Positions 1,085-16,803 of a stretch of DNA of 64,000 nucleotides are shown here, in pieces; the first letter of the stretch is position 1; each line of letters begins with the position of its first letter. The notes below the pieces were generated by a model. It was not told where the DNA came from, ran no database searches, and saw nothing but the letters and a program-made list of their open reading frames with translations. Both the position numbers and the translations under genes were made by a program. Source of the stretch: Escherichia phage ESCO13; sequence record NC_047770.1. One strand, 5' to 3'.

Positions 1085-1465
1085 TTGCATAAGTCATTGA
1101 ATACGAATGATAATTATTCTCATTCGCATGATATTTGGGAATTGTCGCTGCGTGGACCTGACGGCCCGAAAATTCGCGTTAAGCACTTCTTACGTATGCG
1201 CCATGATTTTTGCCATATCATATTGATTCTATTAGATATTCTTGCCATTATTGCCATGAAACAGGGTGTCCCGAAATAATCTCTCCCCGTAGATATTTTG
1301 GGTTACTTTTTATACAAGAGCGGGGTGTCAAAAATAATCGGTATATATGGGATAATTGATAGGAATCCCCTATGATAAATCGATTGTAATTCCTTAAGAT
1401 TGATTGTATGATGTTGGTGATTGATGATTGCCATGAAAGATGGCTAACGATGAGAGGAGATTGTC

Positions 1466-1810
1466 ATGCAAGAGAGTAAAAATGTTCCGTTGAGTAGTTT
1501 ACGTCTAATGAAGTTTTACAAAGCTTGGTTTGCTGGTGAGGTAGAAGGTCACACAACGAGTGGTTTGTGCATATGTTTGATTAAGTATGTAGAGGGAACA
1601 TACCCTGATGAACTGTTACCTCGTCTACAACAAGAGATGAAATCCCAGTTTATTGGTGCAGGACTAGATTACAATTTCCCGTTTAATGAAGGTGGTTATG
1701 AGGAATACACCTTTGAACATAAAAAACATATTTGCCATAAAAACAAACATCGTATACAATGGGTGCTAGATAGAATTCAAGATTATGAAGGAGAGAAAAA
1801 TGACAAATAG
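1466..1810 (+). CDS. hypothetical protein, early paralog family A (copy 1 of 7)
   Basis: SD gagaggag upstream; motifs FYKAW..TSGLCxCL..AGLDYNFPFN..WVLDRI shared with 6 other ORFs. Confidence 0.6.
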   Translation: MQESKNVPLSSLRLMKFYKAWFAGEVEGHTTSGLCICLIKYVEGTYPDELLPRLQQEMKSQFIGAGLDYNFPFNEGGYEEYTFEHKKHICHKNKHRIQWVLDRIQDYEGEKNDK

Positions 1811-2168
1811 TATTCCGTTGAGCAGTGCAACATTGCTTCGCTTCTATAAAGCATGGATTGCCAACTATCCTGCAATGAATCGCACAACGAGTGGCTTATG
1901 TGGTTGTCTGGTAGATTATGTAGATGATTTTGTTGGTGAGACAACTAGAGAAGAAGATAGAAGGTGGCGTGATCATTTGTTAGACCGTTTGAAATATGAA
2001 ATGAGGAAACAATTTACATGTGCAGGGCTGGACTACAATCTTCCGTTCAATGCAGATTGCATGGATTACCTTTCAGAGTGTATAAATTTGGCGTGTCATA
2101 CCAACACGTTACGTCTTCAATGGGTGAAAGATCGCATTGAAGATGCAAATAATGCTTGCATTGAATAA
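1800..2168 (+). CDS. hypothetical protein, paralog family A (copy 2)
   Basis: Start moved to ATG 1800 after SD gaaggagag; motifs FYKAW..GLCGCL..AGLDYNLPFN..WVKDRI. Confidence 0.6.
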   Translation: MTNSIPLSSATLLRFYKAWIANYPAMNRTTSGLCGCLVDYVDDFVGETTREEDRRWRDHLLDRLKYEMRKQFTCAGLDYNLPFNADCMDYLSECINLACHTNTLRLQWVKDRIEDANNACIE

Positions 2169-2226
2169 AAATGTCTGTATGATAGTTTGCATACCGCGCA
2201 TAACAAACAGCTAATGAGGAGATGAA

Positions 2227-2436
2227 ATGAAGAATTTGAAAACTGTCACAATGTTCTTGACTGATCCTACACGTGTGCAAGCACTGGCTAAAGCCAGCCG
2301 TGTAGCTGTAGAATTCCAAAACTTTAAGCCGTCCGTTGTGACAGGCAGTGAAACGTGTGTTATCGATTTCATTAACGAATACTTCCGAGGGAATCCGGTT
2401 GGTCGTTACTTTATTAAGGGTCTGAAGGATGCATAA
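2227..2436 (+). CDS. hypothetical protein
   Basis: ORF with SD gaggag 6 nt upstream. Confidence 0.5.
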   Translation: MKNLKTVTMFLTDPTRVQALAKASRVAVEFQNFKPSVVTGSETCVIDFINEYFRGNPVGRYFIKGLKDA

Positions 2437-2659
2437 CATGAAACGCATGAAAATTCGTATTGAGAATGATGGTGGTTATAAAGGACTTACCCGTGCAAAA
2501 TTTCCACTTGTGTTGGAAGCTACTGTGGAATACAGTGGGCTTGCTCATGTGCGATTCTCGAAGATGATGGAAGTGCAGGAATGGTTTTGGGACGAGATAG
2601 ATGCACGAGAAGGGGAAGATTATGTTTTCTTTCCTCACGAATATGAAATTGTCTATTAA
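2429..2659 (+). CDS. hypothetical protein (family D; C-terminus W-W-E-DYVFF shared with 7048-7269)
   Basis: ORF, weak SD; paralog-like C-terminus. Confidence 0.45.
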   Translation: MHNMKRMKIRIENDGGYKGLTRAKFPLVLEATVEYSGLAHVRFSKMMEVQEWFWDEIDAREGEDYVFFPHEYEIVY

Positions 2660-2662
2660 GGG

Positions 2663-2911
2663 TTGTGTGCAATGATCACACCACAACAGAATGAAGCAGC
2701 AATGGATCTTCTCGATAGTTTGTATTTCGATAATTGGTACTCTGAATGTGAATGGATGAATATGCAAACTCTGAAAGAGAAGACAAAAGCGTTGATTACA
2801 GTAGATCAATTTCTTGCAGAGACGGAAAGAATGAATTATGATATGGCATCTCGCGCACGACGCGTTTCCATTTTCAATAAAATGTTAGCATTATGGGGAG
2901 GTAGAAAATGA
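2663..2911 (+). CDS. hypothetical protein
   Basis: ORF packed between neighbours. Confidence 0.45.
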   Translation: MCAMITPQQNEAAMDLLDSLYFDNWYSECEWMNMQTLKEKTKALITVDQFLAETERMNYDMASRARRVSIFNKMLALWGGRK

Positions 2912-3369
2912 GACAATTCACTATACTGGCAGCTTATGTGCAATGTGTTCACGATTATGTTAGTGCTCATACAGGTTTGCTGGAAGTTACCAGTAAAATT
3001 GAAGGTAATATGGGTACTGTCTGTGTGCAACATACTTTATCCAATGTGCCGTTTAAAGTGTTCACTGTTGTAGCTGCCGATTACAATCGTGTAGATGTGC
3101 GTTTCTTGGATCATAATTTTCGTAACGCACTAGATAATATTGAAGATTATCTTCCCGTGAAACCTTTGTCGTTTCCACCGAGTCGTGCAAATAATGTAGT
3201 GACAAACCTTAATGAAAGGAATGTGGCTATGCACAAAAAAGTCCGTCAATTGAAAATGCTGATGGAAATGCAAGAAGAGATTGAAAAAGAGCTAAAAGAA
3301 GATTTTGGTATGCTTCCAAAAGACGCTTTGAAATGGTATGATGAACTAGGAGGAGAGAGCAATGTTTAA
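2908..3369 (+). CDS. hypothetical protein
   Basis: SD ggggagg upstream; start overlaps preceding stop. Confidence 0.5.
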   Translation: MRQFTILAAYVQCVHDYVSAHTGLLEVTSKIEGNMGTVCVQHTLSNVPFKVFTVVAADYNRVDVRFLDHNFRNALDNIEDYLPVKPLSFPPSRANNVVTNLNERNVAMHKKVRQLKMLMEMQEEIEKELKEDFGMLPKDALKWYDELGGESNV

Positions 3370-3820
3370 AGAAGGTCATGTCTACCGTTTCCAGGATGAG
3401 GATTATATGCGACTATATTCTACCTTTGATAACAGTATTGCGGCTATCATTGGAGAGAATTTTTTCGAGGTGTTGAGCACTGATGCAAATGGTAATATCT
3501 TGTCAATGGTTGTAATAGGTATGAGAGATGGTATTATCACTGCTGGTGATGGGGATCGTTACATAATCAATTCTGCTCATATAGATTATTTTGTTGACGG
3601 TGGTGTTCGTGGTGGTCGTGGAAAACCCCAAGAAGAACCTGTTGATACAACAAAAGAAGAGTGGTATGTTGTAATGACTGATGACACCTGTATTTCTGGA
3701 TTTGAAAGTTATGAAGAAGCTTTGAAAGAAGCAGCAGAGCATAAAATGGCTAATCCTACAGAAGAGGTTGAAGTTTATAAACGTCTGGTTGTTGCTACCA
3801 TCGGCGTATCTTTTGTTTAA
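3362..3820 (+). CDS. hypothetical protein, paralog family B (MFK-G-VY-F N-terminus)
   Basis: SD aggagg; N-terminus MFKEGHVYRFQDED similar to next two ORFs. Confidence 0.55.
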   Translation: MFKEGHVYRFQDEDYMRLYSTFDNSIAAIIGENFFEVLSTDANGNILSMVVIGMRDGIITAGDGDRYIINSAHIDYFVDGGVRGGRGKPQEEPVDTTKEEWYVVMTDDTCISGFESYEEALKEAAEHKMANPTEEVEVYKRLVVATIGVSFV

Positions 3821-3832
3821 AAGGAGAATGTT

Positions 3833-4618
3833 ATGTTTAAAGTAGGTTTTGTTTATAATTTCAAATCAGAAGATACCAAAAAGAATTTTGGTAAAGCCAG
3901 TATTCGTAACGCTTTCTTTGTAGGTTGCATTCAAGATAGCAAGTTTAAAGTTTTAGATGTTGATTTTCTAGGTTCTGTGTCAAAGGTGAAAGTATTAGAC
4001 ACAAATAAGATCATCGAAGGTAGTTCTGGGCTTTTCCCTGAAGGTTATAAGCTTGTAAGTTGTATGGATTATACTCGTTTTGAAGAACATACTCCTGAAG
4101 ATTATGAAGATTCTCCTACAGGAGGCTGTGTCTTTGTAGAAGGTGGTGTCTATAAGTTTGCAAGTGAACAAGATCGTAAGCTTTTCGCCAATTATATTGA
4201 CGGCGGACAAACGACAAACAATGTAAACCGAAAAATTTCCGATCTTATTGGCGATGATCCTTTCGTGATCACAAAGATGGTTGGACAAGATGTAACAGCA
4301 ATCCGTAGGCTTGTATGTAATACAAATCATGTAGCAGGTGAAGGTTGGTTCAAAGAAGCTTGTGCACTGCTAATCAAAAGCGATAACCCTTACTTTAAAA
4401 ATATTAAAGATGCTGTTGAGCCTAAACAAGAGGAACCCGCAGTGAATTTTAAACACTATGCTATTGTTAAAGGTATGAATGTCCAACTGGTGTCACATTC
4501 TTACGAAGAGATCGCCACAGAAGCAAAAAAGATGAAAGAAGAATACCCAATTTCTACTGTTGAGATCTATGAGCGTATTGGTGTTGTTAGTATTGAGCCT
4601 ACTGCGGTAATAAAATAA
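3833..4618 (+). CDS. hypothetical protein, paralog family B
   Basis: SD aaggag; N-terminus MFKVGFVYNFKSED. Confidence 0.55.
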   Translation: MFKVGFVYNFKSEDTKKNFGKASIRNAFFVGCIQDSKFKVLDVDFLGSVSKVKVLDTNKIIEGSSGLFPEGYKLVSCMDYTRFEEHTPEDYEDSPTGGCVFVEGGVYKFASEQDRKLFANYIDGGQTTNNVNRKISDLIGDDPFVITKMVGQDVTAIRRLVCNTNHVAGEGWFKEACALLIKSDNPYFKNIKDAVEPKQEEPAVNFKHYAIVKGMNVQLVSHSYEEIATEAKKMKEEYPISTVEIYERIGVVSIEPTAVIK

Positions 4619-4627
4619 GGAGCTATT

Positions 4628-5065
4628 ATGTTCAAAGCTAATGCTGTTTACTGTTTCAAAAGCAAAGCTGCATGTGAAGCTTTCTCTATGATCTCTGATG
4701 AAAATTTCAAAATGGCAGCTTTGATTGACGGATCTTGTTTCCGCGTCGAAGCTGTTAGTGAATCAGGATCTGTTTGCTCGTTGACTTTATTGGACAGCGG
4801 AGATATTATTGAAGCTGGACAGTATCCGTTCAGAAGTTGGGAGATATTGTTAGCTCGCGGAGAGCGTAACTTTTTTATGTGCGTGTCTGCGGGGGAAGTT
4901 GTGAAAGAAACTAAGGATGTTTCTGTTTACAATTCTGAATTTATAAGTTATAGTGAGTATCAATATCTGGAAGGCATTGTTGGTCACTTGTTATCTCTGA
5001 TTGATACTGAATGTGACTTGCCTGAATCATTGAAAGAAGAGTTGAAAGCATTAGATCTGTTATAA
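4628..5065 (+). CDS. hypothetical protein, paralog family B
   Basis: SD aaggag; N-terminus MFKANAVYCFKSK. Confidence 0.55.
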   Translation: MFKANAVYCFKSKAACEAFSMISDENFKMAALIDGSCFRVEAVSESGSVCSLTLLDSGDIIEAGQYPFRSWEILLARGERNFFMCVSAGEVVKETKDVSVYNSEFISYSEYQYLEGIVGHLLSLIDTECDLPESLKEELKALDLL

Positions 5066-5092
5066 TGTTTCGCACAACGAAAGGAGAATAAG

Positions 5093-5392
5093 ATGAATCT
5101 GACCGAACAGTTACGCCGTATTGCAAAAGAAGCTTCCTTCAACTTCCCTGTTGAAGAAGTGATCGAGACATGTTTTGCTGAAGCACGAGCGGGAAACTCT
5201 TCAAGAAATTTCACGCCATCTGATTTTGGTTTGGATAATTCCCCTACCCACCCAGGGGAGATCTACAATCAGGTGAAGTGGATGGATGAAGCAGTAGCAA
5301 TTCTTCGTGAGCGTGGGCTTATTGTTTATAAAGAAATGGATCTGAACGGGGCATACGAGTGGATCACTATTGATTGGTCGGAGGTGAAATAA
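5093..5392 (+). CDS. hypothetical protein
   Basis: SD aaggag upstream. Confidence 0.5.
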   Translation: MNLTEQLRRIAKEASFNFPVEEVIETCFAEARAGNSSRNFTPSDFGLDNSPTHPGEIYNQVKWMDEAVAILRERGLIVYKEMDLNGAYEWITIDWSEVK

Positions 5393-5601
5393 TGGTTACT
5401 ATCACATTGACAGTTACACAAGAGCAAGCAGAAGAATTACGTGATGCAGTGGCATACATGGGACGCTCTTATTATATGCCTTATAAATCACAAGATGTTT
5501 TTGCTACAGCCATTGAGAAAGCTTTAAACAAATATCGAGAAACTCATGCCGTTCCTAAAGTATCAGCAGAAGAGTTTGGCACTTGGCACGAAGTTCACTA
5601 A
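5392..5601 (+). CDS. hypothetical protein
   Basis: Start moved to ATG 5392 after SD ggaggtg. Confidence 0.45.
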   Translation: MVTITLTVTQEQAEELRDAVAYMGRSYYMPYKSQDVFATAIEKALNKYRETHAVPKVSAEEFGTWHEVH

Positions 5602-5611
5602 GGAGGTTTCG

Positions 5612-5845
5612 ATGAAAGGTAATAAGATGAAAGTTAATCAAGTGCCGAGTGCATACACTTTGTGGCTTGCGCGAGCGTTACACCAGACGATCAAAGACCC
5701 TAAGAAGCCAATGAAGAGTGGGAAGAAGTTTATGTCTAAGGGCAAAACAACCTTTGGCTTCACTCGTATGTCTGTTAAGATGAAAAGGCTGGGGTATAAG
5801 CCAAACTACGCTCGTTACCCTTCCGAATACAACTGGTTTGATTAA
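5612..5845 (+). CDS. hypothetical basic (Lys-rich) protein
   Basis: Start moved to ATG 5612 after SD aaggagg. Confidence 0.45.
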   Translation: MKGNKMKVNQVPSAYTLWLARALHQTIKDPKKPMKSGKKFMSKGKTTFGFTRMSVKMKRLGYKPNYARYPSEYNWFD

Positions 5846-5860
5846 AGAGGAGAACAAAAC

Positions 5861-6145
5861 ATGAAAACATCTATTCGCGTAAAACATGATCCAAACAGCA
5901 GTTACCCATACGCGGATGTTGAACGTCATGAAGGAGACTATTACACCATAAAACGTAAAGTCCCAACTGATACAGGGTTTAACTTTGATGTTATTGCACT
6001 GGATGATCAAGGTGTTGATAATCTGGTGAATGCATTACTCGCATTGAAGGAAGTACGATATGAAAATCAGACTAAAGGTAAAGTGGCTTTCGATTCTTGT
6101 GATCGTTTAGCCGAAGAGATTGCCGAATGGCGTGATACTCACTAA
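5861..6145 (+). CDS. hypothetical protein
   Basis: SD agaggag upstream. Confidence 0.5.
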   Translation: MKTSIRVKHDPNSSYPYADVERHEGDYYTIKRKVPTDTGFNFDVIALDDQGVDNLVNALLALKEVRYENQTKGKVAFDSCDRLAEEIAEWRDTH

Positions 6146-6160
6146 AACAGGAGAAAGATT

Positions 6161-6337
6161 ATGGCTACTTTTCAACAATTGAAAGATGTTTCACGTTTAA
6201 TAAGAAAAATCCGAGAAGCAGACGCTGCTGTGCGGAATGCATTAACGCCAGCAGAGCGTGAAGATCTTGAAGAGGAGGTGAAAACAGCCGAGAATGCTTT
6301 TGCTGCGTATCTTTCAACACTGTATACAGGAGGTTAA
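6161..6337 (+). CDS. small hypothetical protein (58 aa, not in ORF track)
   Basis: ATG with SD caggag; fills gap; stop abuts next ATG. Confidence 0.35.
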   Translation: MATFQQLKDVSRLIRKIREADAAVRNALTPAEREDLEEEVKTAENAFAAYLSTLYTGG

Positions 6338-6652
6338 ATGTCAGAGGAACTTAAAGAATTTTATCAGGCATATCATAACTGGCTATTAGCTGGTGCTCCA
6401 GATAATAATCCTTTCTGGCATGATAAAGGATTATGTAGTTGCCTCTACCTTTGGACTGGTGGTTACGATGATCTAAATTATGAAATGCAAATGCAATTCC
6501 GTGAGGCAGGATTGTCTGAAGAATACCCGTTTGATGACGGAGATTGGTTTAAATATGATTTTGCACAAAGAAACGGGCTATTGCATTTGAATGCTGCCCG
6601 TATAAAATGGGTAAAAGATCATGCTACACAGGAGGATGTGCAATGCCAATAG
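6338..6652 (+). CDS. hypothetical protein, paralog family A (copy 3)
   Basis: SD acaggagg; motifs FYQAY..GLCSCL..AGLSEEYPFD..WVKDH. Confidence 0.6.
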   Translation: MSEELKEFYQAYHNWLLAGAPDNNPFWHDKGLCSCLYLWTGGYDDLNYEMQMQFREAGLSEEYPFDDGDWFKYDFAQRNGLLHLNAARIKWVKDHATQEDVQCQ

Positions 6653-6843
6653 TGTTTAGTTTCTTGGTAATTGTTATAGTTGTTCTTTTCGCAGCATGGC
6701 TTTGGGATTTTGACCCAGGAGCAGCGCAGCAAAGAGCTACAGACTGGAAAGAACAATGTATTGTGCTCAAACATGAACGAAATGCGGAGAAATTTCTTGA
6801 CCTGGAGTGTGATCGCCTTGTAAGATACAAGCAAGATAAATAA
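6643..6843 (+). CDS. small membrane protein, family C (KEQCIVxK..KFLD)
   Basis: Start moved to ATG 6643 after SD aggagg; hydrophobic N-terminus; paralog of 12317-12523. Confidence 0.5.
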   Translation: MPIVFSFLVIVIVVLFAAWLWDFDPGAAQQRATDWKEQCIVLKHERNAEKFLDLECDRLVRYKQDK

Positions 6844-6857
6844 CCTTGAGGTGCAAA

Positions 6858-7046
6858 ATGGTAATTGAGATTAAACTTGAATATGCTGGGGCTGTTGCCT
6901 TGATCGCACAAACGTTTGGAGCAAAAATTGAAGAAGTGTATATCAATGCCTGGAGCGTAGAGATTGATGTTCCTATGGATAACATTGCGAATCGCTTGCT
7001 GGTGGCAGAGTGTGAACGCACCAACATAATCTACAAAGGAGCATAA
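6858..7046 (+). CDS. hypothetical protein
   Basis: Start moved to ATG 6858 after SD gaggtg. Confidence 0.4.
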   Translation: MVIEIKLEYAGAVALIAQTFGAKIEEVYINAWSVEIDVPMDNIANRLLVAECERTNIIYKGA

Positions 7047-7047
7047 T

Positions 7048-7269
7048 ATGAAAATTAGAGTTTGTGATGTATTGGGTTATGTTGGTTTTGAGAATGTTCA
7101 GATTCCTTTTGTTGTTGAAGCACATCTTGTTAGCGATGATATGACAACATTCTTTGTTACGATAGAAGAAATGTCCAAAGTTGAGGGATGGGAGTGGTTT
7201 GAAGAAGATGTTTGGGAAGGTTGTGATTACGTATTTTTCTCTGATGAAGTGAATGTTCTTTCGGAGTAG
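7048..7269 (+). CDS. hypothetical protein (family D)
   Basis: SD aaggag; C-terminus WEWFEEDVWEGCDYVFF resembles 2429-2659. Confidence 0.5.
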   Translation: MKIRVCDVLGYVGFENVQIPFVVEAHLVSDDMTTFFVTIEEMSKVEGWEWFEEDVWEGCDYVFFSDEVNVLSE

Positions 7270-7271
7270 GT

Positions 7272-7478
7272 ATGTCTTGTTTTACAAAAGCAGTGTCCAT
7301 ATGTAAGAAACAGTATGAAAGTGATTACGGAATATTTAATATTCCAGCAGATCATACGGAGTATTGTTCATGTGGTGGCAGGATGAAGAAAACAGTGATT
7401 TATGCGGATAGTGGAGACGAACTTGTTCCGGTTATGGTTTGCAAAGCTTGTCATTCTATTAAAACATTAAAAGCGTAA
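7272..7478 (+). CDS. hypothetical Cys-rich protein
   Basis: ORF with SD ggag; CxC..CxxC. Confidence 0.45.
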   Translation: MSCFTKAVSICKKQYESDYGIFNIPADHTEYCSCGGRMKKTVIYADSGDELVPVMVCKACHSIKTLKA

Positions 7479-7573
7479 GGAGTCGGGACACCCGACGATT
7501 GGAGCTAAAAATTTTGCGTACAACCCTTTCCGCCCAACAGGGGCGCGTCGGGTAAATAAAGAGGAGAGTTTAT

Positions 7574-7972
7574 ATGAAAAAGATCATTGTAGGTTTATTG
7601 CTACTCGTTGCATCACTTGGAACAGCAAATGCGTCTCAAGTTTATGAGTGTGTGTCAGATGTGGTTGTTAAAAATCTGAAAGGTGAAGTGATTTCTGGTC
7701 CTAAGAAAATGGCTTCTGTTGTCATTAATAAAGATAACTCCTTTATCCTTAAAAATTCAGGTGGTGCTTTGATGAGTGGCATTCTGCAATACACAGGAGA
7801 AAAAAGTAAAGATGGTAGTGCTATGTACGGTTCACAACAATTTATTGGCACTACTGAAGTAGTAATGATGCGCACAGAGTATCGAGACACTTTGGCTTGG
7901 TTTGCATTTCTAAAAAATGATAAAACAATAACGAATGTTCTTACTCTAGAAGCTGATTGTACGCAACGATAA
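7574..7972 (+). CDS. secreted hypothetical protein (signal peptide)
   Basis: SD agaggag; N-terminus MKKIIVGLLLLVASLGTANA. Confidence 0.55.
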   Translation: MKKIIVGLLLLVASLGTANASQVYECVSDVVVKNLKGEVISGPKKMASVVINKDNSFILKNSGGALMSGILQYTGEKSKDGSAMYGSQQFIGTTEVVMMRTEYRDTLAWFAFLKNDKTITNVLTLEADCTQR

Positions 7973-7981
7973 GGGGGATTT

Positions 7982-8428
7982 ATGACTAAAATGAGACATT
8001 ACGCTGTAAACTGCAACGATGTTTGGCGTTTGTGTCCTGATGATCCGACAGAAGGCACATTTGTAAGATATGAGGATTATAAAGAGTTATCGGATGCTGT
8101 AGTCGCATTGTTAACAGATATCCGTTCACGTTATCCAGGACAAGATTTCACTTGCCCTCACATCAAACTTCTTGCCCTTCTGGTAGAAGGTGAGAAAGAA
8201 GTGGAAGATGGCTTCAAGCGTGTAGAGTATCAAGGTGAAACTTTAGAGGTTCCTGAATTTGTTAATTATATTGCAACAGATTCGAGTGGCGAGCGTTATG
8301 GCTACAGCCATAAGCCAGAGATTCCTGATTGGATTCCCGCTTGGAGATATTCCGTTAGTACCGGAGACTATATCTTCCTTGGTGTAGGTAGTAGTAAGGA
8401 TTGGCGTTTCTCTTTGACAGAGGTTTAA
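7982..8428 (+). CDS. hypothetical protein
   Basis: SD aaggggg upstream. Confidence 0.5.
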   Translation: MTKMRHYAVNCNDVWRLCPDDPTEGTFVRYEDYKELSDAVVALLTDIRSRYPGQDFTCPHIKLLALLVEGEKEVEDGFKRVEYQGETLEVPEFVNYIATDSSGERYGYSHKPEIPDWIPAWRYSVSTGDYIFLGVGSSKDWRFSLTEV

Positions 8429-8432
8429 TAAT

Positions 8433-8696
8433 ATGAAAGAGACATTGCCAGCAGCATACCGTTTGAATGATGAACGTATTTGGGAGTGGACCGACGTTTC
8501 TTGTTTTTACCCTGAAATAGTTCAATATTGGCGAGCAAAAGGGTGTGTTGTAGTTATCAACCCTTGTGGACCAGTGGATGAAGATTGCTTGTATCTCGAT
8601 GGAAAGTGGCACAGTTATTGTCGCTGGCCTTTTGAGTGGATGTGTAAAGAAGATCTCCCAGAGGGTTGGGAGTATCCAAAAGCAAATAGGAGATAA
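8433..8696 (+). CDS. hypothetical Cys/Trp-rich protein
   Basis: ORF with SD gagg. Confidence 0.45.
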   Translation: MKETLPAAYRLNDERIWEWTDVSCFYPEIVQYWRAKGCVVVINPCGPVDEDCLYLDGKWHSYCRWPFEWMCKEDLPEGWEYPKANRR

Positions 8697-8697
8697 T

Positions 8698-9060
8698 ATG
8701 TCTAAAGATTTTGTTGAAGTGTTTGTCAAAGATGAAGAAACTGGTTTAGGCACGGGTTTCATTTGTGAAGAAACTTTTAAACGTGAACAAGAAAAAGCTA
8801 TCCTTATGCGAAACTATGATCATGCATTAGAACAATGGAAAAATGCAGAACAAAAATGCAAAAACCTTTATGCAGAAAATAGAAAACTACAAGATCAAAT
8901 GGAGTTGTTAGCTATCAGTTTACGATCTCTCATTTTGGCTGTAGAAGACGGTTTTAAAAATCCAGATGGTTTTCCTGTGAGCGATATTGAACATGATTTG
9001 TATCTTGCTCGTGGTGCTTACTTTTATGTTAAACAGAAGTCTGTAGAAGGAGAGAAGTGA
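8698..9060 (+). CDS. hypothetical protein
   Basis: Start moved to ATG 8698 after SD aggaga. Confidence 0.45.
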   Translation: MSKDFVEVFVKDEETGLGTGFICEETFKREQEKAILMRNYDHALEQWKNAEQKCKNLYAENRKLQDQMELLAISLRSLILAVEDGFKNPDGFPVSDIEHDLYLARGAYFYVKQKSVEGEK

Positions 9061-9257
9061 TGGAAGAAAAACTGGAACGTATTATCGAGTTAGCCATGTC
9101 TATTGGCTACGACGATTGTTTTCTCCAAACTATTGGAGAAACACAGAACGATTACGACTCTTGGGTGAAAGAGTTGGAAGAACTCAAAACTTCCTTGATT
9201 GCTGACTTTGCTGAAGCCGAGGATAAAGCAGATCGTTACAACTATCTGTGTCGATAA
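9057..9257 (+). CDS. hypothetical protein
   Basis: ATGA start/stop overlap with upstream gene. Confidence 0.45.
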   Translation: MMEEKLERIIELAMSIGYDDCFLQTIGETQNDYDSWVKELEELKTSLIADFAEAEDKADRYNYLCR

Positions 9258-9319
9258 GCCTTGACATTTATTTTATGTATGGTATACATACATTATCAAC
9301 GTGAGCAAGGTGGTGTAAT

Positions 9320-9592
9320 ATGAATAAAGATCGGTTTCTTTCTTTAGTCGCGGAAGCTCCTTTTGATGTTCTTGGGGTGAGATTATGGAAAGACAGAAAC
9401 TATGGGTTAGATGTTCAAACATACTCTCTTTGGTTGGTTGGGGAGCACAGCTTAGATGAAAGCTTGTGCATGGGTAGGGATTCTCGTTCCCTCTGTTTAA
9501 AGTTCAGAAGCTTAGAACGCGCAAACAAAGAGCAAGAAAAACTAACGAGGTGGCTAAATGAAAACAAGCACAAGGTTGATGGAGTTTTATAA
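9320..9592 (+). CDS. hypothetical protein
   Basis: SD aaggtgg upstream. Confidence 0.45.
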   Translation: MNKDRFLSLVAEAPFDVLGVRLWKDRNYGLDVQTYSLWLVGEHSLDESLCMGRDSRSLCLKFRSLERANKEQEKLTRWLNENKHKVDGVL

Positions 9593-9884
9593 AATTTATC
9601 TAGCATGGATTGATGTTGGTGCTCCTGATGGTAAACCTTTTCGGCGGGATTGTGGTTTGTGTGCCAACTTGTTCGATTATGTGCACAGAGGTAATTACAA
9701 CCCCATTATAACAACCTTGTCAGATGAAATGCACGCACAGTTTTACCACAAAGGGTTGAGTCAAGCACTCCCTTTCAATGAGAACTACGATGCATATATC
9801 TTAGAATCAGATGCAGAGGTATGTCACCTGAACGTGGACAGGATTAATTGGGTAAGAGATCGTATTGCAGAGGAGGATGAATAA
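9558..9884 (+). CDS. hypothetical protein, paralog family A (copy 4)
   Basis: SD gaggtgg; motifs FYKIY..GLCANL..KGLSQALPFN..WVRDRI. Confidence 0.6.
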   Translation: MKTSTRLMEFYKIYLAWIDVGAPDGKPFRRDCGLCANLFDYVHRGNYNPIITTLSDEMHAQFYHKGLSQALPFNENYDAYILESDAEVCHLNVDRINWVRDRIAEEDE

Positions 9885-10111
9885 TGTCGGATTATAACTG
9901 GTATGAACTTGAGGCTGTTTGTCAGTTTTATGACTCAATAGTTCTGCGTGATCCAATCTGTCAAGAATTGAGTCGCCGTGCAAGTGCATTGGCAATCCGT
10001 GTTAAAATAAACGGTTGGAACGCAGATTTGGAAAAAGAGTTGGAATTTCTCTTAGAAAACACGCGGGTCTTCCGCAAAGTGTTCCCTGAATGGTTTGAGA
10101 TGGAAGAATGA
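9884..10111 (+). CDS. hypothetical protein
   Basis: SD gaggagg; start overlaps upstream stop. Confidence 0.45.
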   Translation: MSDYNWYELEAVCQFYDSIVLRDPICQELSRRASALAIRVKINGWNADLEKELEFLLENTRVFRKVFPEWFEMEE

Positions 10112-10329
10112 TCATGTGGATTGTGCGTCTTAAATATGATGGCCCTGATCCTTGGGTGAGAACAGTTTGCGGATGTGATACTAAAGAGTCAGCAGATAAA
10201 GCTGGAAGAATGATAAGTGCCTTTTATAATAGTAAACCTCTTTGTTTAGAAATGTCTGGTGTGGTTTGTATGAGCATGTTCGAATACTACTCTTATGAAA
10301 TCAAAGAACACCAAGGGGAATGGAAATAA
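10108..10329 (+). CDS. hypothetical protein
   Basis: ATGA overlap with upstream gene. Confidence 0.4.
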   Translation: MIMWIVRLKYDGPDPWVRTVCGCDTKESADKAGRMISAFYNSKPLCLEMSGVVCMSMFEYYSYEIKEHQGEWK

Positions 10330-10391
10330 ATCGTTGACAGAAGGATTTGTCTTTGTCATAATCATCTCATCGAAACAAAGAGGAGAAAATC

Positions 10392-10946
10392 ATGAAAAAG
10401 TTTATTTGCACCCGTTCCACTAACAGTGATATCCTTGTAGGTAAAGTTATCAAAGGAGAACTCTTCCATGCAAACGGTAAGAAATATATTCTGCTGAAAG
10501 ATTCTTTCAACGGGGAATATCCACGCTGCACTTTCTTCAATTACAATACTCCATTTGCTTTAGAAGGAGATGCTTGGGACTGGGCTGAACTTCATCCTTT
10601 CTGTGAAGATGGACAGACAGAAGAGCAGGAAGAATCTACGGGAAGTTTACGTGATAAACTGCGTAATAAAGCACTGCAAGCAAATTCCCATTTTACTGAA
10701 ATGGTAGACGCCGTTCTATTAGAGATTGAAGATTGTGCGGAACAAGGGAAGTTTGAAAAATACTTTGAACCTTCCAGTTTTGGTTTGTGCAATAACCCTT
10801 CTTCTTATGAACAGATAAGTGAGCAGAAAAGAGGGGCAAATGTTGTAGCTACAATGCTACGTGCAAAAGGTTTGGATGTAACGTTGGCAACCGCAGAGCA
10901 CAGTATTTTTGGGATTATTAAACACATCATCATCAGTTGGAACTAA
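10392..10946 (+). CDS. hypothetical protein
   Basis: SD agaggag; downstream of promoter at 10334. Confidence 0.5.
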   Translation: MKKFICTRSTNSDILVGKVIKGELFHANGKKYILLKDSFNGEYPRCTFFNYNTPFALEGDAWDWAELHPFCEDGQTEEQEESTGSLRDKLRNKALQANSHFTEMVDAVLLEIEDCAEQGKFEKYFEPSSFGLCNNPSSYEQISEQKRGANVVATMLRAKGLDVTLATAEHSIFGIIKHIIISWN

Positions 10947-10959
10947 GAGGAGAGAGCAT

Positions 10960-11274
10960 ATGAAAATAGAAGAGGTAGAAGCAATCCTGCAAGCGGCTGT
11001 TGAGAAAGGTGCAATCGCTAAGTATGACCGTCAGAAAGAAGAGCACGACACTCATTTCGCTCGTGAGTTTTACATCACAGGTGTAGACGGCACAGAAGTG
11101 ATGTTGGAATGGTATGTAAACATGATGACCTTACATATTGGCAGTTTCGAGATGTGGGTGTGGAGCATAGGGATCTCCGATACCCACCCTGGCTTCCGAG
11201 TGAGTTTGGATTTCACCTCTTACGAAGGTGATCGCTGTGCCCGTATTGGTCGTCGCAATTCATTTCAAGGTTAA
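10960..11274 (+). CDS. hypothetical protein
   Basis: Start moved to ATG 10960 after SD agaggagag. Confidence 0.45.
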   Translation: MKIEEVEAILQAAVEKGAIAKYDRQKEEHDTHFAREFYITGVDGTEVMLEWYVNMMTLHIGSFEMWVWSIGISDTHPGFRVSLDFTSYEGDRCARIGRRNSFQG

Positions 11275-11285
11275 CTGGAGGGTTT

Positions 11286-11624
11286 ATGAAAAAGGCACTA
11301 CTGATCGCGCTGTTCCTGGTGACTCCTCCTGTTATGGCAGACACTGTACCTAAAGTTAATGGCTTTGGGGATTCAAAAGTTGTAACCAAGGATCGCTTTG
11401 TCCAAACTGGTATGACTGGGGCTTTGGATTATATCATTACAGACACAAAGACAGGGTGCCAGTTTGCTATCGTCTATAATGGCGGGGTCATTCCTTTGGG
11501 TTGCTTCTCGGAGACTGGGGCTTTGGATTATATCATTACAGACACAAAGACAGGGTGCCAGTTTGCTATCGTCTATAATGGCGGGGTCATTCCTTTGGGT
11601 TGCTTCTCGGAGTTCAAAAAATGA
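11286..11624 (+). CDS. secreted protein with perfect 33-aa tandem repeat
   Basis: Signal peptide MKKALLIALFLVTPPVMA; unit TGALDYIITDTKTGCQFAIVYNGGVIPLGCFSE occurs twice. Confidence 0.5.
   Translation: MKKALLIALFLVTPPVMADTVPKVNGFGDSKVVTKDRFVQTGMTGALDYIITDTKTGCQFAIVYNGGVIPLGCFSETGALDYIITDTKTGCQFAIVYNGGVIPLGCFSEFKK
11415..11612 (+). repeat. perfect 99-bp direct tandem duplication (2 copies) inside CDS
   Basis: Identical run actggggctttggattatatcattacagacacaaagacagggtgccag... repeated back to back. Confidence 0.7.
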
Positions 11625-12028
11625 AAAATATCCGTGTGAAGTTTCTTGCCTCTAAGTTTATTAATGTTCGAGACTATTTGACCATAGGTCGGATCTACAA
11701 CGCCAAAGTAGCAGATGAGAACTGTTTCATTGTTGTGGATGATGAAGGATCTGAACTCTATTGTCTGTTTGAAAATTGCAGCTATGGGGTGTGGCAAGTT
11801 ATGTCGGAAGAAGACGAAAAGAAAGAGAGCGAAATGTATATCCCAGAAGGATACGTCTTGGTCCCGAAAGAGCCTACCCCAGAAATGTTGGAGGCAGCGA
11901 AGGACTGGACGGGGCTAACCCGAACAGCAGAAGTTGTCTATAAGTCGATGATCGCGGCTTCGCCGCTTATTGGAAAAGGGGTAGGGAAAGAAAATGAGAT
12001 CAAGCGAAGCTTTACTGGAGTTTTATGA
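11621..12028 (+). CDS. hypothetical protein
   Basis: Start moved to ATG 11621 (ATGA overlap, SD ggag). Confidence 0.45.
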   Translation: MKNIRVKFLASKFINVRDYLTIGRIYNAKVADENCFIVVDDEGSELYCLFENCSYGVWQVMSEEDEKKESEMYIPEGYVLVPKEPTPEMLEAAKDWTGLTRTAEVVYKSMIAASPLIGKGVGKENEIKRSFTGVL

Positions 12029-12320
12029 GTGGTGGTTGGATCAGGCTATGGGTCAAGATCCAAACGAAAACATCAAAGCTTGTGGTTTGTGTCATGCAGT
12101 GGAAGTGTATTGCGGGGAAGACCAAGATTTGTATCTTTCCCTTTTTGATGAAATGACAGAACAGTTTGAAGCGGAAGGTTTGGAATGGAACTATCCTTTC
12201 TATGGTGAGTGGGATCTGTCAGGTTGGATTCCTTGTTATTGGATTGAGAAGAAGTCCGGCACCCAACATAAAAACTTCCACCGTCTTTCTTGGGTCTATG
12301 ACCGTCTGGAGGAGGCATGA
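11994..12320 (+). CDS. hypothetical protein, paralog family A (copy 5)
   Basis: Motifs FYEWW..GLCHAV..EGLEWNYPFY..WVYDRL. Confidence 0.55.
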   Translation: MRSSEALLEFYEWWLDQAMGQDPNENIKACGLCHAVEVYCGEDQDLYLSLFDEMTEQFEAEGLEWNYPFYGEWDLSGWIPCYWIEKKSGTQHKNFHRLSWVYDRLEEA

Positions 12321-12523
12321 GTTTTCACGCTTTCTTTAATCTTTTGTTATTATTGATCTTTTTGGGATTCCTGATTCTCCTTGCCAGTGTTGCATCAGAT
12401 ATGCAAAAAGAACAGATAGATCTTAAGGAACAATGTATCGTTTTTAAACAAGAAAAAGATGCCAATAAATTTCTTGACAACAATTGCTTCAACTTTGTAA
12501 AATGGAACCCTGATAAAGATTGA
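12317..12523 (+). CDS. small membrane protein, family C
   Basis: Hydrophobic N-terminus; KEQCIVFKQEKDANKFLD matches 6643-6843. Confidence 0.5.
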   Translation: MSFHAFFNLLLLLIFLGFLILLASVASDMQKEQIDLKEQCIVFKQEKDANKFLDNNCFNFVKWNPDKD

Positions 12524-12533
12524 GGAATAAATC

Positions 12534-13205
12534 ATGAAAAAGTTTGTTGTTTACAGTCGTCTTTCTAAACAGAAAAAAGGTGAGGCACAATATGGTATGG
12601 AGAGCCAAGAGAATGATATCCGTTACTTCTTAGACTCTGTGCCTGATGCTGAAGTTATTGGTCAATTTTCTGAATACTATTCGGGTAAGGGCGATTGGAA
12701 GCAACGTAAGGAACTGGTCAAAGCGGTTGAAATGTGTAAAGCTACCGGAGCAACTTTATTGGTAGCTAAAGTTGACCGCTTGGGTCGTAACAACGCCTCC
12801 GTAGCAACTCTTCTAGAAATGATCGATGTTAAGATAGCCATCATGCCAGATGCAGATAAAATGGTTATACAGCTTCTGTCTGTTCTGGCTGAACAAGAAG
12901 TCAGAGGTATTGCTGATCGTATTAAAAAGGGTCTTGCTGTAGCAAAAAGCAAAGGTGTTTTATTAGGCAGTGCTAATCCTAAAACTGCCGCTGCACGTAG
13001 AAAAGGAAAAATGGAATACAATTCTGTTAAAGCAGACGCTTTTGCAGAGACATTCCGTGAACGCTTGGAGATCCTTAGAGATTTAAATACACCTTACAAA
13101 ACTATTGCTGAAAAATTCAATAGTAAGAAAATCGCAACAGCACGTGGTGGTAAGTGGGATGCTAAAACTGTTTCTCGCTTGTGTGCTAGATTGAACATTA
13201 AATAG
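12534..13205 (+). CDS. serine recombinase (resolvase/invertase family)
   Basis: N-terminal YSRLS with catalytic Ser; VDRLGRN; QLLSVLAEQEVRGIADRIKKG; C-terminal HTH; SD gaggaataaatc. Confidence 0.7.
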   Translation: MKKFVVYSRLSKQKKGEAQYGMESQENDIRYFLDSVPDAEVIGQFSEYYSGKGDWKQRKELVKAVEMCKATGATLLVAKVDRLGRNNASVATLLEMIDVKIAIMPDADKMVIQLLSVLAEQEVRGIADRIKKGLAVAKSKGVLLGSANPKTAAARRKGKMEYNSVKADAFAETFRERLEILRDLNTPYKTIAEKFNSKKIATARGGKWDAKTVSRLCARLNIK

Positions 13206-13213
13206 GAGAGGAT

Positions 13214-13624
13214 ATGAAACAAGAAAATGAATCTGTAGATCACTTAATCATGCTGTCAGCCCTTTTTGCCGGATGGGAGGTATTTTTTGAAAATTTGTTC
13301 AATTCTGCTACAGATGGTTCTGATTTTATGCGCCAATTTAAACGACGAACTGTTGAGGACTATACTTTCTATTCAGGTCGGATTGAAAAAGGTTACGAAG
13401 ATACAAATACAACACTCACCATTAAAGTTTTAGATGTGATGTTTAGTGTTATAGATGCTATCGATGAAAGTCTTCCGATTTTAGAAGATTGCAATACGAA
13501 AGCTTATGTTTACAAAATAGCCCGTGCTTATGTGTCTGCAAACAGTTGTCTTCTTTCCACCCAAATTGCGGTGAACAATCTTGCCAACTTGTTCGATGAA
13601 GGAGAAACTTTTTATGACAATTGA
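13214..13624 (+). CDS. hypothetical protein
   Basis: SD ggagagg upstream. Confidence 0.45.
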   Translation: MKQENESVDHLIMLSALFAGWEVFFENLFNSATDGSDFMRQFKRRTVEDYTFYSGRIEKGYEDTNTTLTIKVLDVMFSVIDAIDESLPILEDCNTKAYVYKIARAYVSANSCLLSTQIAVNNLANLFDEGETFYDN

Positions 13625-13979
13625 TTTGAAGTGTAAGAGGATTCTTTTAGATTTCTATAATAATTGGTTAGAACACCTCCGTCTCTTTCCACGAGAAAGT
13701 GGTTACGCTGATGTTGGCTTATGCCGAGGTCTACGTATGTATATAAGTGATGAATTTCGAGCCGATCATTCTTTAGCATATTCTGTTTATGGTATGCAAT
13801 TAGCCAGTTTTGAAAATGCTGGTTTAGATACAACTTTCCCGTTTAACACAGCAAAATCTTTTGAGCAAGAGTGTAAGGAAAAACGTTGCATGTTTAATGA
13901 AAAACGTGTACAGTGGGTTAAGGATCGAGTTAAACAACTGGAACAAGAGTTGGATTTCTTCTATGATGAGGCAGAATAA
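13614..13979 (+). CDS. hypothetical protein, paralog family A (copy 6)
   Basis: Start moved to ATG 13614 after SD ggagaaa; motifs FYNNW..GLCRGL..AGLDTTFPFN..WVKDRV. Confidence 0.55.
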   Translation: MTIDLKCKRILLDFYNNWLEHLRLFPRESGYADVGLCRGLRMYISDEFRADHSLAYSVYGMQLASFENAGLDTTFPFNTAKSFEQECKEKRCMFNEKRVQWVKDRVKQLEQELDFFYDEAE

Positions 13980-14251
13980 TGGATAGACAAACCTTAAAAA
14001 CAATGGCAGATGCCACTAATTCCCCGTACTTTGAAAAAGTAAGTAAATTGGTAGCTCAAGCCGCAGAGGAAGGATATTATAACATAAACATCCACAACCC
14101 AAGTCTTATACTAGAAATGCCAAGTGATAAGAAGATACAAGAGAGTATCTGTGAAGGTATTGTTAGTTACTGGCGCGAGCGTGGGTGTGGTGCAAACATG
14201 GCTTTAGACAGTGCAAACATTGTAAGATATATAAATATTTCTTGGGGGTGA
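13979..14251 (+). CDS. hypothetical protein
   Basis: TAATG overlap with upstream gene. Confidence 0.45.
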   Translation: MDRQTLKTMADATNSPYFEKVSKLVAQAAEEGYYNINIHNPSLILEMPSDKKIQESICEGIVSYWRERGCGANMALDSANIVRYINISWG

Positions 14252-14255
14252 TTTT

Positions 14256-14867
14256 ATGATTCAATGCACTCATATCCAAATTACTTGGAGAGATGAACTT
14301 TACCATTTGGGACAATTTACTGTAGGGGAAACATACCCTGTCATTAAACATAATCCTAACATCGCAAACTTTGACAGGATGGTTCTTGTTGAGGACGATC
14401 TAGGTCAAACTTATTCTTTAGATCTAAAATATCCGTTTTCTTACGGCTACGATTGGATCGTTACTTTTGAAGACGTGGAGGAAAATAAAACAATGAACGA
14501 AAAAAATTCTTGGTATTATCGTTGTGAACTGCCGCCAGTAGGTGAAAAGGTTATCTTTGTTCCTGATTTGGAAAGATATTCTTGGGACAGTTCTTATTCT
14601 GTTCCTAAAGAAGGAACAGAAGTTGAAGTTATTGCACATCGCACAACTTCGCATGGTAACGATGTAGCAGTTGTTTTCTGGGATGATGAAGGCGCTGCTT
14701 GTGCAGGTGGCTTTGTTGCAGGTAATTTTGAACCCCTGCCAGATCCTTTGAAGGAGGCAATTTTAGGCGTAGCTTCTTTTGGACTCTCTTACACGTCTGC
14801 ACAGGAGATCGTAGAAGGTATTTTAAACGGTACCGTTCCAAACGAAATTTTCAAACAGATTAAATAA
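14256..14867 (+). CDS. hypothetical protein
   Basis: SD gggggtg; followed by terminator hairpin. Confidence 0.5.
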   Translation: MIQCTHIQITWRDELYHLGQFTVGETYPVIKHNPNIANFDRMVLVEDDLGQTYSLDLKYPFSYGYDWIVTFEDVEENKTMNEKNSWYYRCELPPVGEKVIFVPDLERYSWDSSYSVPKEGTEVEVIAHRTTSHGNDVAVVFWDDEGAACAGGFVAGNFEPLPDPLKEAILGVASFGLSYTSAQEIVEGILNGTVPNEIFKQIK

Positions 14868-14873
14868 CAGTTG

Positions 14874-14900
14874 CACCCCGTTCTTCGGGGTGTTATTGTA
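14874..14900 (+). terminator. intrinsic terminator hairpin
   Basis: caccccg-ttctt-cggggtg followed by ttattgt. Confidence 0.5.
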
Positions 14901-14918
14901 TACGTAAAGGAGGAGATA

Positions 14919-15257
14919 ATGTATTACACTGAAGACTACATACTGTATAACTTTTTTAAAGGCTGGTTGAAATGGGCTGAACAAGCTCCTGTCGGAGATT
15001 GTGTTTTTCCTTGGGATTCTCGTCAAGGTTTGTGTCGTTGTTTGGAAGATTGGCTTATAACCACAAACTACAACTCAGAAACTAAGAAATCTACATCACA
15101 GAGACTAAAAATGTTATTTGAAGAAGATGGTTTAGATCCGATTTATCCTTTCGGTGAGGAAAGTTTCCACAATGGTCTTTTCCTTGGCACTCAACATTAT
15201 GATAAAGATCGTGTAGATTGGGTAAAAGAAAAGGTAGCACAGTATGAATGGGGTTAA
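14919..15257 (+). CDS. hypothetical protein, paralog family A (copy 7)
   Basis: Start moved to ATG 14919 after SD aaaggaggag (track start would span the terminator); motifs FFKGW..GLCRCL..DGLDPIYPFG..WVKEKV. Confidence 0.55.
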   Translation: MYYTEDYILYNFFKGWLKWAEQAPVGDCVFPWDSRQGLCRCLEDWLITTNYNSETKKSTSQRLKMLFEEDGLDPIYPFGEESFHNGLFLGTQHYDKDRVDWVKEKVAQYEWG

Positions 15258-15447
15258 GAATTATCACCGCTGGTTAGAAAGCTATCTTAAGAAATGCGAA
15301 CTTGGTGTTCCAGGTTATACTTACGACACGGACGAGATTCTTGATGAAATGGAAGTTTGGTTTAAAGAGCCTCGTGAACTATTGGCAAATATTCTAATGG
15401 CTTGGGATGGTACGGCACAAAGCATCGAAGGAGGTAGAAATGAGTAA
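15244..15447 (+). CDS. hypothetical protein
   Basis: ORF overlapping upstream stop. Confidence 0.4.
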   Translation: MNGVKNYHRWLESYLKKCELGVPGYTYDTDEILDEMEVWFKEPRELLANILMAWDGTAQSIEGGRNE

Positions 15448-15574
15448 GAAATTGTTTAATATTCGTGAGAATCGTGATGGATCGTTCTCTGTAGTCAATG
15501 AATTTAACGTTTCGGTTGGGACTTTTATTACTAAACGTCAAGCAGAACAAGTAAGAGATACTTTAAACAAGTAA
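15440..15574 (+). CDS. small hypothetical protein (44 aa, not in track)
   Basis: ATG 7 nt after SD gaaggaggt. Confidence 0.3.
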   Translation: MSKKLFNIRENRDGSFSVVNEFNVSVGTFITKRQAEQVRDTLNK

Positions 15575-15591
15575 GTTTTAAGGGGGGACTT

Positions 15592-16470: not shown

Positions 16471-16507
16471 TATTAACCCTCTTCTTCTGTAGAATGTAAT
16501 TAGATCC

Positions 16508-16790: not shown

Positions 16791-16803
16791 TCCAGGAGAA
16801 AAT

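Follow-up and report, generated by a model that had tools for sequence, protein, structure and literature searches.

The 64,000-nucleotide (64 kb) stretch of Escherichia phage ESCO13 analyzed here (NC_047770.1; hereafter the window) encodes a genuine family of seven paralogous small proteins. A hidden Markov model (HMM) of the family picks out the same seven open reading frames (ORFs) that an earlier note had listed from the sequence alone. The proteins align over their full length, and copy-versus-copy BLASTP E-values run from 1.7e-5 to 3e-20. The family is catalogued automatically as PHROG 2510 and is otherwise undescribed, having no curated family, structure, fold relative, or literature. 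Its members are predicted to share a five-helix fold and may act by target binding, perhaps in a host-takeover or anti-defense role. The reading favored here, held tentatively and with somewhat less than even confidence, is that the domain is a helical binding scaffold, modular and dimer-forming, with paralogs directed at different targets among host or defense proteins. The seven genes are listed below with protein length in amino acids (aa), family HMM E-value, and, where available, the ratio of nonsynonymous to synonymous substitution rates among orthologs (dN/dS).

Copy 1: 1466..1810, plus strand; 114 aa; HMM E 3.2e-41; PHROG 2510 E 1.7e-25; ortholog dN/dS 0.09; upstream Shine-Dalgarno sequence GAGAGGAG; accessory, missing from phage vB_Ec-G1 (L001).
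Copy 2: 1800..2168, plus strand; 122 aa from the ATG at 1800; HMM E 4.4e-40; dN/dS 0.06; tandem to copy 1 with an 11-nt overlap; insertion of about 20 aa in the helix 2-helix 3 loop.
Copy 3: 6338..6652, plus strand; 104 aa; HMM E 1.2e-37; PHROG 2510 E 8e-29; dN/dS 0.02; AGGAGG Shine-Dalgarno sequence; found in 6/6 compared genomes.
Copy 4: 9558..9884, plus strand; 108 aa; HMM E 3.4e-43; fastest-evolving copy and query of the structure model.
Copy 5: 11994..12320, plus strand; 108 aa; Trp-rich; isoelectric point (pI) 4.25; HMM E 1.3e-39; accessory.
Copy 6: 13614..13979, plus strand; 121 aa; HMM E 9.2e-39; dN/dS 0.04; in 6/6 compared genomes.
Copy 7: 14919..15257, plus strand; 112 aa; HMM E 4.5e-35; dN/dS 0.08; in 6/6 compared genomes.

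Evidence for a Paralog Family

All seven plus-strand ORFs, at 1466, 1800, 6338, 9558, 11994, 13614, and 14919, were confirmed. Their products align end to end and are 27-51% identical to copy 1 (alignment A1), with 14 columns invariant among the seven: M1, L14, F17, G-L-C, F62, G-L, P-F, R96, and W-V. Searched against the 669 six-frame ORFs of the whole window, the HMM built from the seven copies recovers precisely these seven (E 4.5e-35 to 3.4e-43), and no other window ORF matches it even at E<=10. The all-against-all BLASTP comparison of window ORFs that yielded the copy-versus-copy E-values also identifies the family as the largest paralog group of the window, the remaining groups having two or three members. 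Because the HMM and BLASTP E-values are strong, the shared motifs reflect homology rather than compositional chance.

A Shine-Dalgarno sequence precedes each of the seven start positions given in the earlier note, and all seven genes are annotated as coding sequences (CDS) for a "hypothetical protein" in related genomes. The ORF of copy 2 opens earlier, at ATG 1785 (ORF 1785-2168); the start at 1800 has AAGGAG upstream and agrees with the 369-nt CDS annotated in relatives. The ATG codons of copy 6 (13614) and copy 7 (14919) are preceded by GAAGGAG and AGGAGG, respectively, and are internal to longer TTG-started ORFs (13581-13979 and 14871-15257). Judged from ortholog dN/dS, the genes of copies 1, 2, 3, 6, and 7 appear to be expressed and constrained.

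That the similarity is due to chance or composition, or that the ORFs are not expressed genes, is extremely improbable. HMM E-values of 1e-35 to 1e-43 with no further window ORF at E<=10, thousands of homologs, dN/dS well under 1, the Shine-Dalgarno sequences, and a confident fold prediction all speak against it. Compositional chance, one of two outcomes that the earlier note had named as a refutation, is ruled out by the HMM E-values, the many homologs, and the ortholog dN/dS.

The earlier note had also proposed four ordered motifs, which the alignment retains in part. L..FY..W is present in all copies, except that copy 7, the most divergent, has FF in place of FY. WV(K/R)DRI is approximately right, the actual pattern being W-V-x-(D/E)-(R/H/K), and copy 7 reads WVKEKV. 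Within GLCxCL, the GLC is invariant, but the second Cys is found in only 4/7 copies and 30/185 domains of the wider family. AGLDYNxPF is exact in copies 1-2 only, the other copies having GL-x4-PF. The description of small proteins with one conserved Cys is borne out by the alignment. The seven proteins are acidic (pI 4.25-6.20) and aromatic-rich, with no hydrophobic segment or signal peptide in any of the seven (grand average of hydropathy -0.48 to -0.77). A lipoprotein lipobox reading of "GLC" was rejected, as the Cys at about position 35 follows an amphipathic helix and a charged loop.

Family Identity and Distribution Across Phages

Each of the seven copies matches phrog_2510 (function unknown) over about 100 residues, with E-values from 1.4e-20 to 6.6e-32; weaker PHROG matches are 6418, 27059, and 2176. 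The profile length of PHROG 2510, 219, fits the two-domain fusions described below. The entry itself is an automated cluster without function, fold, or description, and no record of its multi-copy arrays, invariant signature, or link to N4 gp3 was found in the sources searched. The earlier note had not recognized the family, and no curated database knows it: scans of the copies against Pfam, NCBIfam, and PADLOC returned chance-level matches only (SufE, YaeQ, ARMC9_LisH, PifA, zinc peptidase). Assignment as a PADLOC defense component was rejected because its single match, copy 2 against PifA, is at chance level (E 0.021, 11 bits). One public source labels the exact copy-5 sequence DUF695 (PF05117). 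This label was not reproduced: PF05117 matches none of the seven copies (threshold E<=1) and none of 26 family members scanned at E<=10.

When 1.84 billion representatives were searched exhaustively with the HMM, 1902 clusters (50% identity) were recovered at E<=1e-3 and 922 at E<=1e-10. By tblastn, the family is detected in 254 phage records, with hosts that include Escherichia, Klebsiella, Rhizobium, Achromobacter, Salmonella, Erwinia, Ralstonia, Delftia, and others. A scan of IMG/VR with copy 4 yielded two loci only. Few further members, and no fusions with a Pfam annotation, came from a word-indexed protein search with a 116-sequence profile, and the larger homologs (P0027, P0056, P0122, P0154, and others) contain no informative fused domain except a weak zinc-ribbon tail in P0154. 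Among the homologs found, the family is confined to phage contexts; prophage and bacterial copies were not searched for. The domain, small (about 100 aa) and cytoplasmic, is carried by Proteobacteria phages in early or accessory gene blocks.

One homolog is gp3 of phage N4, which matches copy 4 by tblastn (E 7e-7, 32% identity over 93% of copy 4) and the family HMM at E 3.2e-20. It resembles the copies in size and signature (GLC, PFN, CHLNxxRIxWI) but is single-copy in N4-like phages (Schitoviridae), against seven copies in the window. Its gene lies directly after gp2, within a left-end block that also holds the RNAPII genes. In N4, the virion RNA polymerase transcribes from the left end and yields gp1, gp2, and RNAPII as early products (PMC4496689). 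N4 gp3 is likewise uncharacterized, so the relationship offers timing context only.

The N4 arrangement bears on a phage-internal role, in which the proteins would, for example, assist transcription or replication complexes of the phage as cofactors or adaptors, or act as chaperones of early proteins, with no host or defense target. In favor of such a role, N4 gp3 directly follows gp1 and gp2, which are RNAPII cofactors, in the early block (PMC4496689), and five copies are present in 6/6 Phapecoctavirus genomes under strong purifying selection. However, the family spans Schitoviridae, Autographiviridae, Stephanstirmvirinae, and jumbo phages, whose transcription and replication machineries are unrelated, and its gain, loss, and exchange among close relatives would be unexpected for essential cofactors. 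A phage-internal role is therefore judged improbable.

Predicted Structure and Conserved Residues

Remote-homology searching and structure prediction, which the earlier note had proposed as checks, gave a confident five-helix fold with no sequence or fold relative in the PDB. The AlphaFold2 model of copy 4, based on a 26-sequence alignment, has a predicted local distance difference test (pLDDT) score of 91.6 and a predicted template modeling (pTM) score of 0.85. Its helices span residues 5-19, 34-42, 50-64, 77-85, and 93-107, and the loop between helices 2 and 3 is the sole softer segment. The best Foldseek match of the model to a solved structure in the PDB has an E-value of 0.96, and PDB sequence profile searches were empty (best E 0.34 with alignment A1; no matches with A3). 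In BFVD, 17 matches were found at E<=1e-3, all of them uncharacterized phage proteins, with several per genome in Delftia phage PhiW-14 and Burkholderia phage BcepSaruman; remoter matches lie in PAK_P1-like Pseudomonas phages. There is no fold or sequence likeness to solved anti-defense proteins or nucleotide sponges.

Two candidate functions were set aside. A winged-helix or helix-turn-helix DNA-binding protein was rejected, the combination of a significant fold match and a basic DNA-binding surface not being found. A DNA mimic, in turn, would have no need of an invariant Cys/Arg/Trp signature.

Conservation was assessed with 116 diverse members for residue percentages and 185 domains for residue counts. 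Invariant in the 116 members are C35, P72, F73, R95, and W98, and at least 90% conserved are L7, F10, Y11, G33, L34, Q61, F62, L67, N92, and V99. The Cys is kept in 184/185 domains, as is the Arg. Position 90 is His in 136 of the 185 domains, Tyr in 22, and Trp in 5, and two residues after the conserved Cys there is Asn in 112, Cys in 30, and Ala in 16. Across very distant phages, the near-invariant polar residues are Cys35, Asn92, and Arg95, joined in most cases by Gln61, Glu57, Glu83, and His90. The conserved residues of helices 1, 3, and 5 are spaced i, i+3/4, i+7, which in the model would place them on the hydrophobic-core face. The most length-variable element is that between helices 2 and 3, with a long insertion in copy 2 and almost none in the 92-aa member from phage K59PH2, in which the helix holding Glu57 and Gln61 is largely missing. 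A thiol-disulfide oxidoreductase (CxxC/CxC) was rejected, as there is no conserved Cys pair, only one Cys (184/185 domains).

Such conservation raises the possibility, judged less likely than the scaffold but a serious rival to it, of a conserved ligand- or metal-binding pocket, or a thiol-enzyme pocket, around Cys35, Asn92, and Arg95. The Cys would lie at the N-terminus of helix 2, usually accompanied by His90, Gln61, Glu57, and Glu83, and the paralogs would differ by ligand specificity or localization, for example, as sponges for different immune-signaling nucleotides. The invariance of C35, P72, F73, R95, and W98 in 116 sequences, the conservation of Q61 and N92 at 90% or more, and the retention of Cys and Arg in 184/185 domains each all favor a pocket. 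So do the conserved polar residues of helices 1, 3, and 5, which appear from their spacing and the model to point inward. Moreover, the proteins are small, early-placed, and predicted oligomers, like known phage sponges, and purifying selection fits a conserved biochemical activity. Nevertheless, about 15% of domains have Tyr or Trp in place of His90, the second domain of fusions does not conserve this His, and the Glu57/Gln61 helix is mostly absent from the K59PH2 member. Enzymes would not usually occur as seven to eight paralogs per genome or as triple tandem fusions that retain one signature throughout. CxC lacks a conserved second Cys, and there is no fold relative.

Arrays, Fusions, and Probable Dimerization

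Among 167 representatives, 19 are two-domain fusions and one, BcepSaruman gp339, has three domains. Both halves of the two-domain fusions retain the signature (alignment A4). Clustering of separate genes is equally evident. Contig L018 holds six copies in 11.6 kb, including three consecutive overlapping ORFs, the third of which is a two-domain fusion, and contig L010 holds six copies within 15 kb. Overlapping gene pairs occur in L020 and L021, and the Autographiviridae phage K59PH2 (L009, 43 kb) has two near-adjacent copies. Copies 1 and 2 of the window form a comparable overlapping pair (11 nt). Arrays, pairs, and fusions thus recur in unrelated phages, and expansion is a trait of the family. 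This behavior is more typical of binding modules than of enzymes.

The model of P0021, a natural two-domain fusion, is a single rigid unit (pLDDT 95.0, pTM 0.81). The pTM of 0.81 indicates that its two domains have a defined packing. By Rosetta-stone reasoning from this model, the single-domain proteins probably dimerize.

Selection and Repertoire Change

Selection was estimated as dN/dS (NG86 method) between the window and five close relatives, with 27 non-family genes of the block as baseline. Orthologs of copies 1, 2, 3, 6, and 7 are 92-100% identical at the protein level in the five relatives, and their dN/dS values are 0.09, 0.06, 0.02, 0.04, and 0.08, respectively, compared with 0.12 for the pooled non-family genes. 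Since orthologs (90-100% identical) are far closer than paralogs (27-51%), the copies probably have stable, distinct roles. The paralogs are old, individually conserved lineages.

Copy 4 has a dN/dS of 0.59 in the five-genome comparison (pooled value 0.12). In a sample of 45 pairs from 10 distinct sequences, small and not phylogenetically corrected, its dN/dS is 0.30 versus 0.14 and 0.12 for the flanking genes, so that omega stays below 1. The substitutions concentrate at residues 5-6, 43-50, 60-70, and 86-88, in loops, and all signature residues are unchanged across the compared sequences. This pattern is suggestive of local relaxation or positive selection. The diversifying selection that the earlier note had suggested is only partly supported, by the elevated rate of copy 4 (0.30-0.59) but not by the five copies under strong purifying selection (0.02-0.09). 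The dN/dS check that it had proposed gave no omega >1; variation comes mainly by gain, loss, and exchange of whole copies.

The number of copies differs between near-identical genomes: 5 in vB_Ec-G1, 6 in phAPEC8_ev052, and 7 elsewhere. All five close relatives (L001, L003-L006) lack copy 5 together with the gene for the membrane protein downstream of it. In three of these five there is an eighth type that the window does not have, with 50-52% identity to copy 4. The copy-5 segment occurs in only 6/50,697 phage records and has about 92% DNA identity in the phiWec phages. Orthologs of copy 5 are found in contigs L010 and L018 (95% and 86% protein identity), where no other family copy exceeds 52% identity to a copy of the window. 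With the seven types of the window, the eighth type, and a further three from L010, the pool numbers at least 11 types, of which genomes hold differing sets. Whole genes are exchanged between genomes. The variation of the family is mainly repertoire change rather than sequence-level diversifying selection.

A variable hotspot lies at 10329-12534, between copy 4 and a recombinase gene (corresponding to 12593-14564 in relative L004). In the window, it contains genes for a 184-aa protein, a secreted protein, a 135-aa protein, copy 5, and a transmembrane (TM) protein. In relatives, it contains the eighth family type and unrelated small genes, including one for another TM protein.

Several side observations concern this region. 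The recombinase gene (12534-13205) encodes a serine recombinase/resolvase in the middle of an ORFan block of a virulent myovirus, is very strongly conserved (dN/dS 0.01), and directly follows the region where cassettes vary most (positions of about 10.3-12.5 kb). In some records it carries the wrong label, "methionine ABC transporter ATP-binding protein." A resolvase gene is also found among the family copies in contig L018 (8279-8950). Within the ORF at 11286-11624, a perfect 99-bp tandem duplication (11414-11612; 2.0 copies, 100%) doubles a 33-aa segment of a signal-peptide protein whose phiWec190 ortholog (79 aa) is single-copy; the duplication is either very recent or an assembly artefact. 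A record named "Pseudomonas phage PsgM04F" (L017, OR584014.1) is a Phapecoctavirus that is about 92% identical to the window over the copy-5 segment and has copy 4 at 80% protein identity. It shows 9 tblastn places for copy 4, the highest number seen, and its stated Pseudomonas host is surprising for the genus.

Association with Small Membrane Proteins

Copy 3 and copy 5 each overlap the gene next downstream, which in both cases encodes a single-pass membrane protein of 66-68 aa.

6643..6843, plus strand: small membrane protein of 66 aa with one TM pass; 10-nt overlap between its start and the end of copy 3.
12317..12523, plus strand: small membrane protein of 68 aa with one TM pass; ATGA overlap with the stop codon of copy 5.

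The two membrane proteins are paralogs (36.5% identity, BLASTP E 1.9e-10). The protein encoded at 6643-6843 has a Kyte-Doolittle 19-residue maximum of 2.91, and its gene is annotated in relatives as a 201-nt CDS overlapping copy 3. The pair of copy 3 and its TM gene is kept in all compared genomes, and the 6643-6843 protein is a possible partner of copy 3. The pair formed by copy 5 and its TM gene is gained and lost together, with one extra gene between them in phiWec190. TM segments are also found fused N-terminally to the domain itself in remote homologs, at least in P0035, P0037, P0113, and P0140.

Proposed Mechanism

In the binding-scaffold reading, the conserved core and the signature (FY..W, G-L-C, G-L-x4-P-F, and H/Y-x-N-x-x-R-x-x-W-V) would fix the fold. 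Each paralog would have its own partner among host or defense proteins by virtue of surface elements that vary, mainly the hairpin between helices 2 and 3, the N-terminal end of helix 1, and the loops that follow helices 3 and 4. The domains would probably act as homo- or heterodimers, and copies 3 and 5 may work with their small co-translated membrane proteins. Each genome carries a changeable selection of the family, 5-7 in the compared early regions, out of at least 11 types.

This reading is favored because a small helical domain, a rigid signature, variable loops, and an acidic surface are combined in one family. It is also favored because the family has an early or accessory placement in unrelated phage families, with recurrent arrays and fusions, and because its long-lived paralogs are under purifying selection while being gained, lost, and exchanged between close relatives. 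Four points weigh against it. The near-invariance of the polar residues exceeds the norm for a pure binding scaffold and would fit a ligand or catalytic site. Purifying selection on most copies argues against a sequence-level arms race. The downstream neighbors of the family genes are not TM proteins in Bas95, Akira, K59PH2, or an N4-like phage. Lastly, no published account of the family, its partners, phenotype, or expression was found in the literature.

A more far-reaching proposal, which we consider improbable as it stands, would join elements of the scaffold and the pocket. The undescribed fold would serve Proteobacteria phages as a general counter-defense platform in which the invariant Cys/Asn/Arg site binds or modifies one common class of immune signals or effectors and the variable loops and dimer pairings tune specificity. 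The seven to eight copies of a genome would constitute a combinatorial anti-immunity repertoire, partly membrane-tethered through the TM proteins.

Genomic Setting

The first 16 kb of the window are 96-98% identical to many Phapecoctavirus genomes. This genus of the Stephanstirmvirinae, to which the window itself belongs, comprises phAPEC8-like myoviruses of E. coli with genomes of about 150 kb. The family sits in a co-directional plus-strand block of small genes, nearly all of them "hypothetical protein" in every record. The sign of the GC skew changes near 20 kb, at the coding-strand switch. Several deposited genomes start base 1 at window positions 853-1106, and the block begins about 400-600 bp later. 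The early region in which the earlier note had placed the copies fits this setting: co-directional small ORFans are typical of phage early or host-takeover regions, and N4 gp3 lies in the N4 early block. The assignment of the block as early is positional and accordingly provisional.

The contexts examined in other phages were those in the BASEL phage Bas95, the Salmonella phage Akira, an Autographiviridae Klebsiella phage, and three metagenomic contigs. All are small co-directional ORFan runs without Pfam matches. In N4-like phages and Autographiviridae, the family is located near the genome end or upstream of replication genes.

The best sigma-70-like sites (11/12 matches) are at 10334-10362 and 12474-12503, with a 10/12 site at 16508-16537. 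All three precede genes and are correctly oriented; those at 10334-10362 and 16508-16537 are intergenic, and that at 12474-12503 falls within the last part of the TM gene, shortly before the recombinase gene. The total of sigma-70-like sites in the sequence is no higher than the shuffled expectation. A search of Rfam gave no match in 1-20000.

Upstream of copy 1 and adjoining it, positions 1-1465 form an AT-rich segment of about 1.4 kb. Most relatives have no gene annotated there, and one record calls seven small ORFs on the minus strand. The segment contains short direct repeats with TTGCCA (1247-1266 and 1424-1443) and a 24-nt inverted repeat (507-530/629-652). It may be a terminus or an early-promoter region. 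The block also contains further paralog groups, at 2429-2659/7048-7269, 3362-3820/3833-4618/4628-5065, and 5093-5392/10392-10946, with BLASTP E-values of 1e-6 to 1e-10. In some records, a paralog group with the pattern MFK.G.VY.F is labeled goF-like mRNA metabolism modulator. Repeated segmental duplication appears to have shaped the whole block. Elsewhere in the window, ten tRNA genes (57537-59549, plus strand) are specific for Met, Arg, Ser, Asn, Thr, Gly, Gln, Pro, Ile, and Met.

Significance and Comparison with Known Systems

With about 1900 clusters at 50% identity in several phage families, this is among the more abundant uncharacterized phage protein families seen. Its phages infect Escherichia, Klebsiella, Salmonella, the Pseudomonas group, Burkholderia, Rhizobium, and others, and they include therapeutic-candidate coliphages and the model phage N4. 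The strict signature, the repeated arrays and fusions, and the variable repertoire between near-identical phages make the family a tractable target, and assigning a function could reach thousands of "hypothetical proteins." If the proteins do serve host takeover or counter-defense, they would have a bearing on host-range prediction in phage therapy.

The family belongs to a known kind, the small early-region phage proteins that likely act on the host; its fold, signature, and expansion set it apart within that kind. Acb2, Ocr, and AsiA-type proteins are likewise small, acidic, helical, encoded in early regions, probably oligomeric, and widely spread among phage families. SUKH/Imm-type immunity domains and ankyrin arrays similarly combine a conserved core with variable surfaces, tandem arrays, fusions, and a shifting repertoire. 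These latter families are unrelated to the phage family in fold and sequence, and the likeness is one of evolutionary pattern only.

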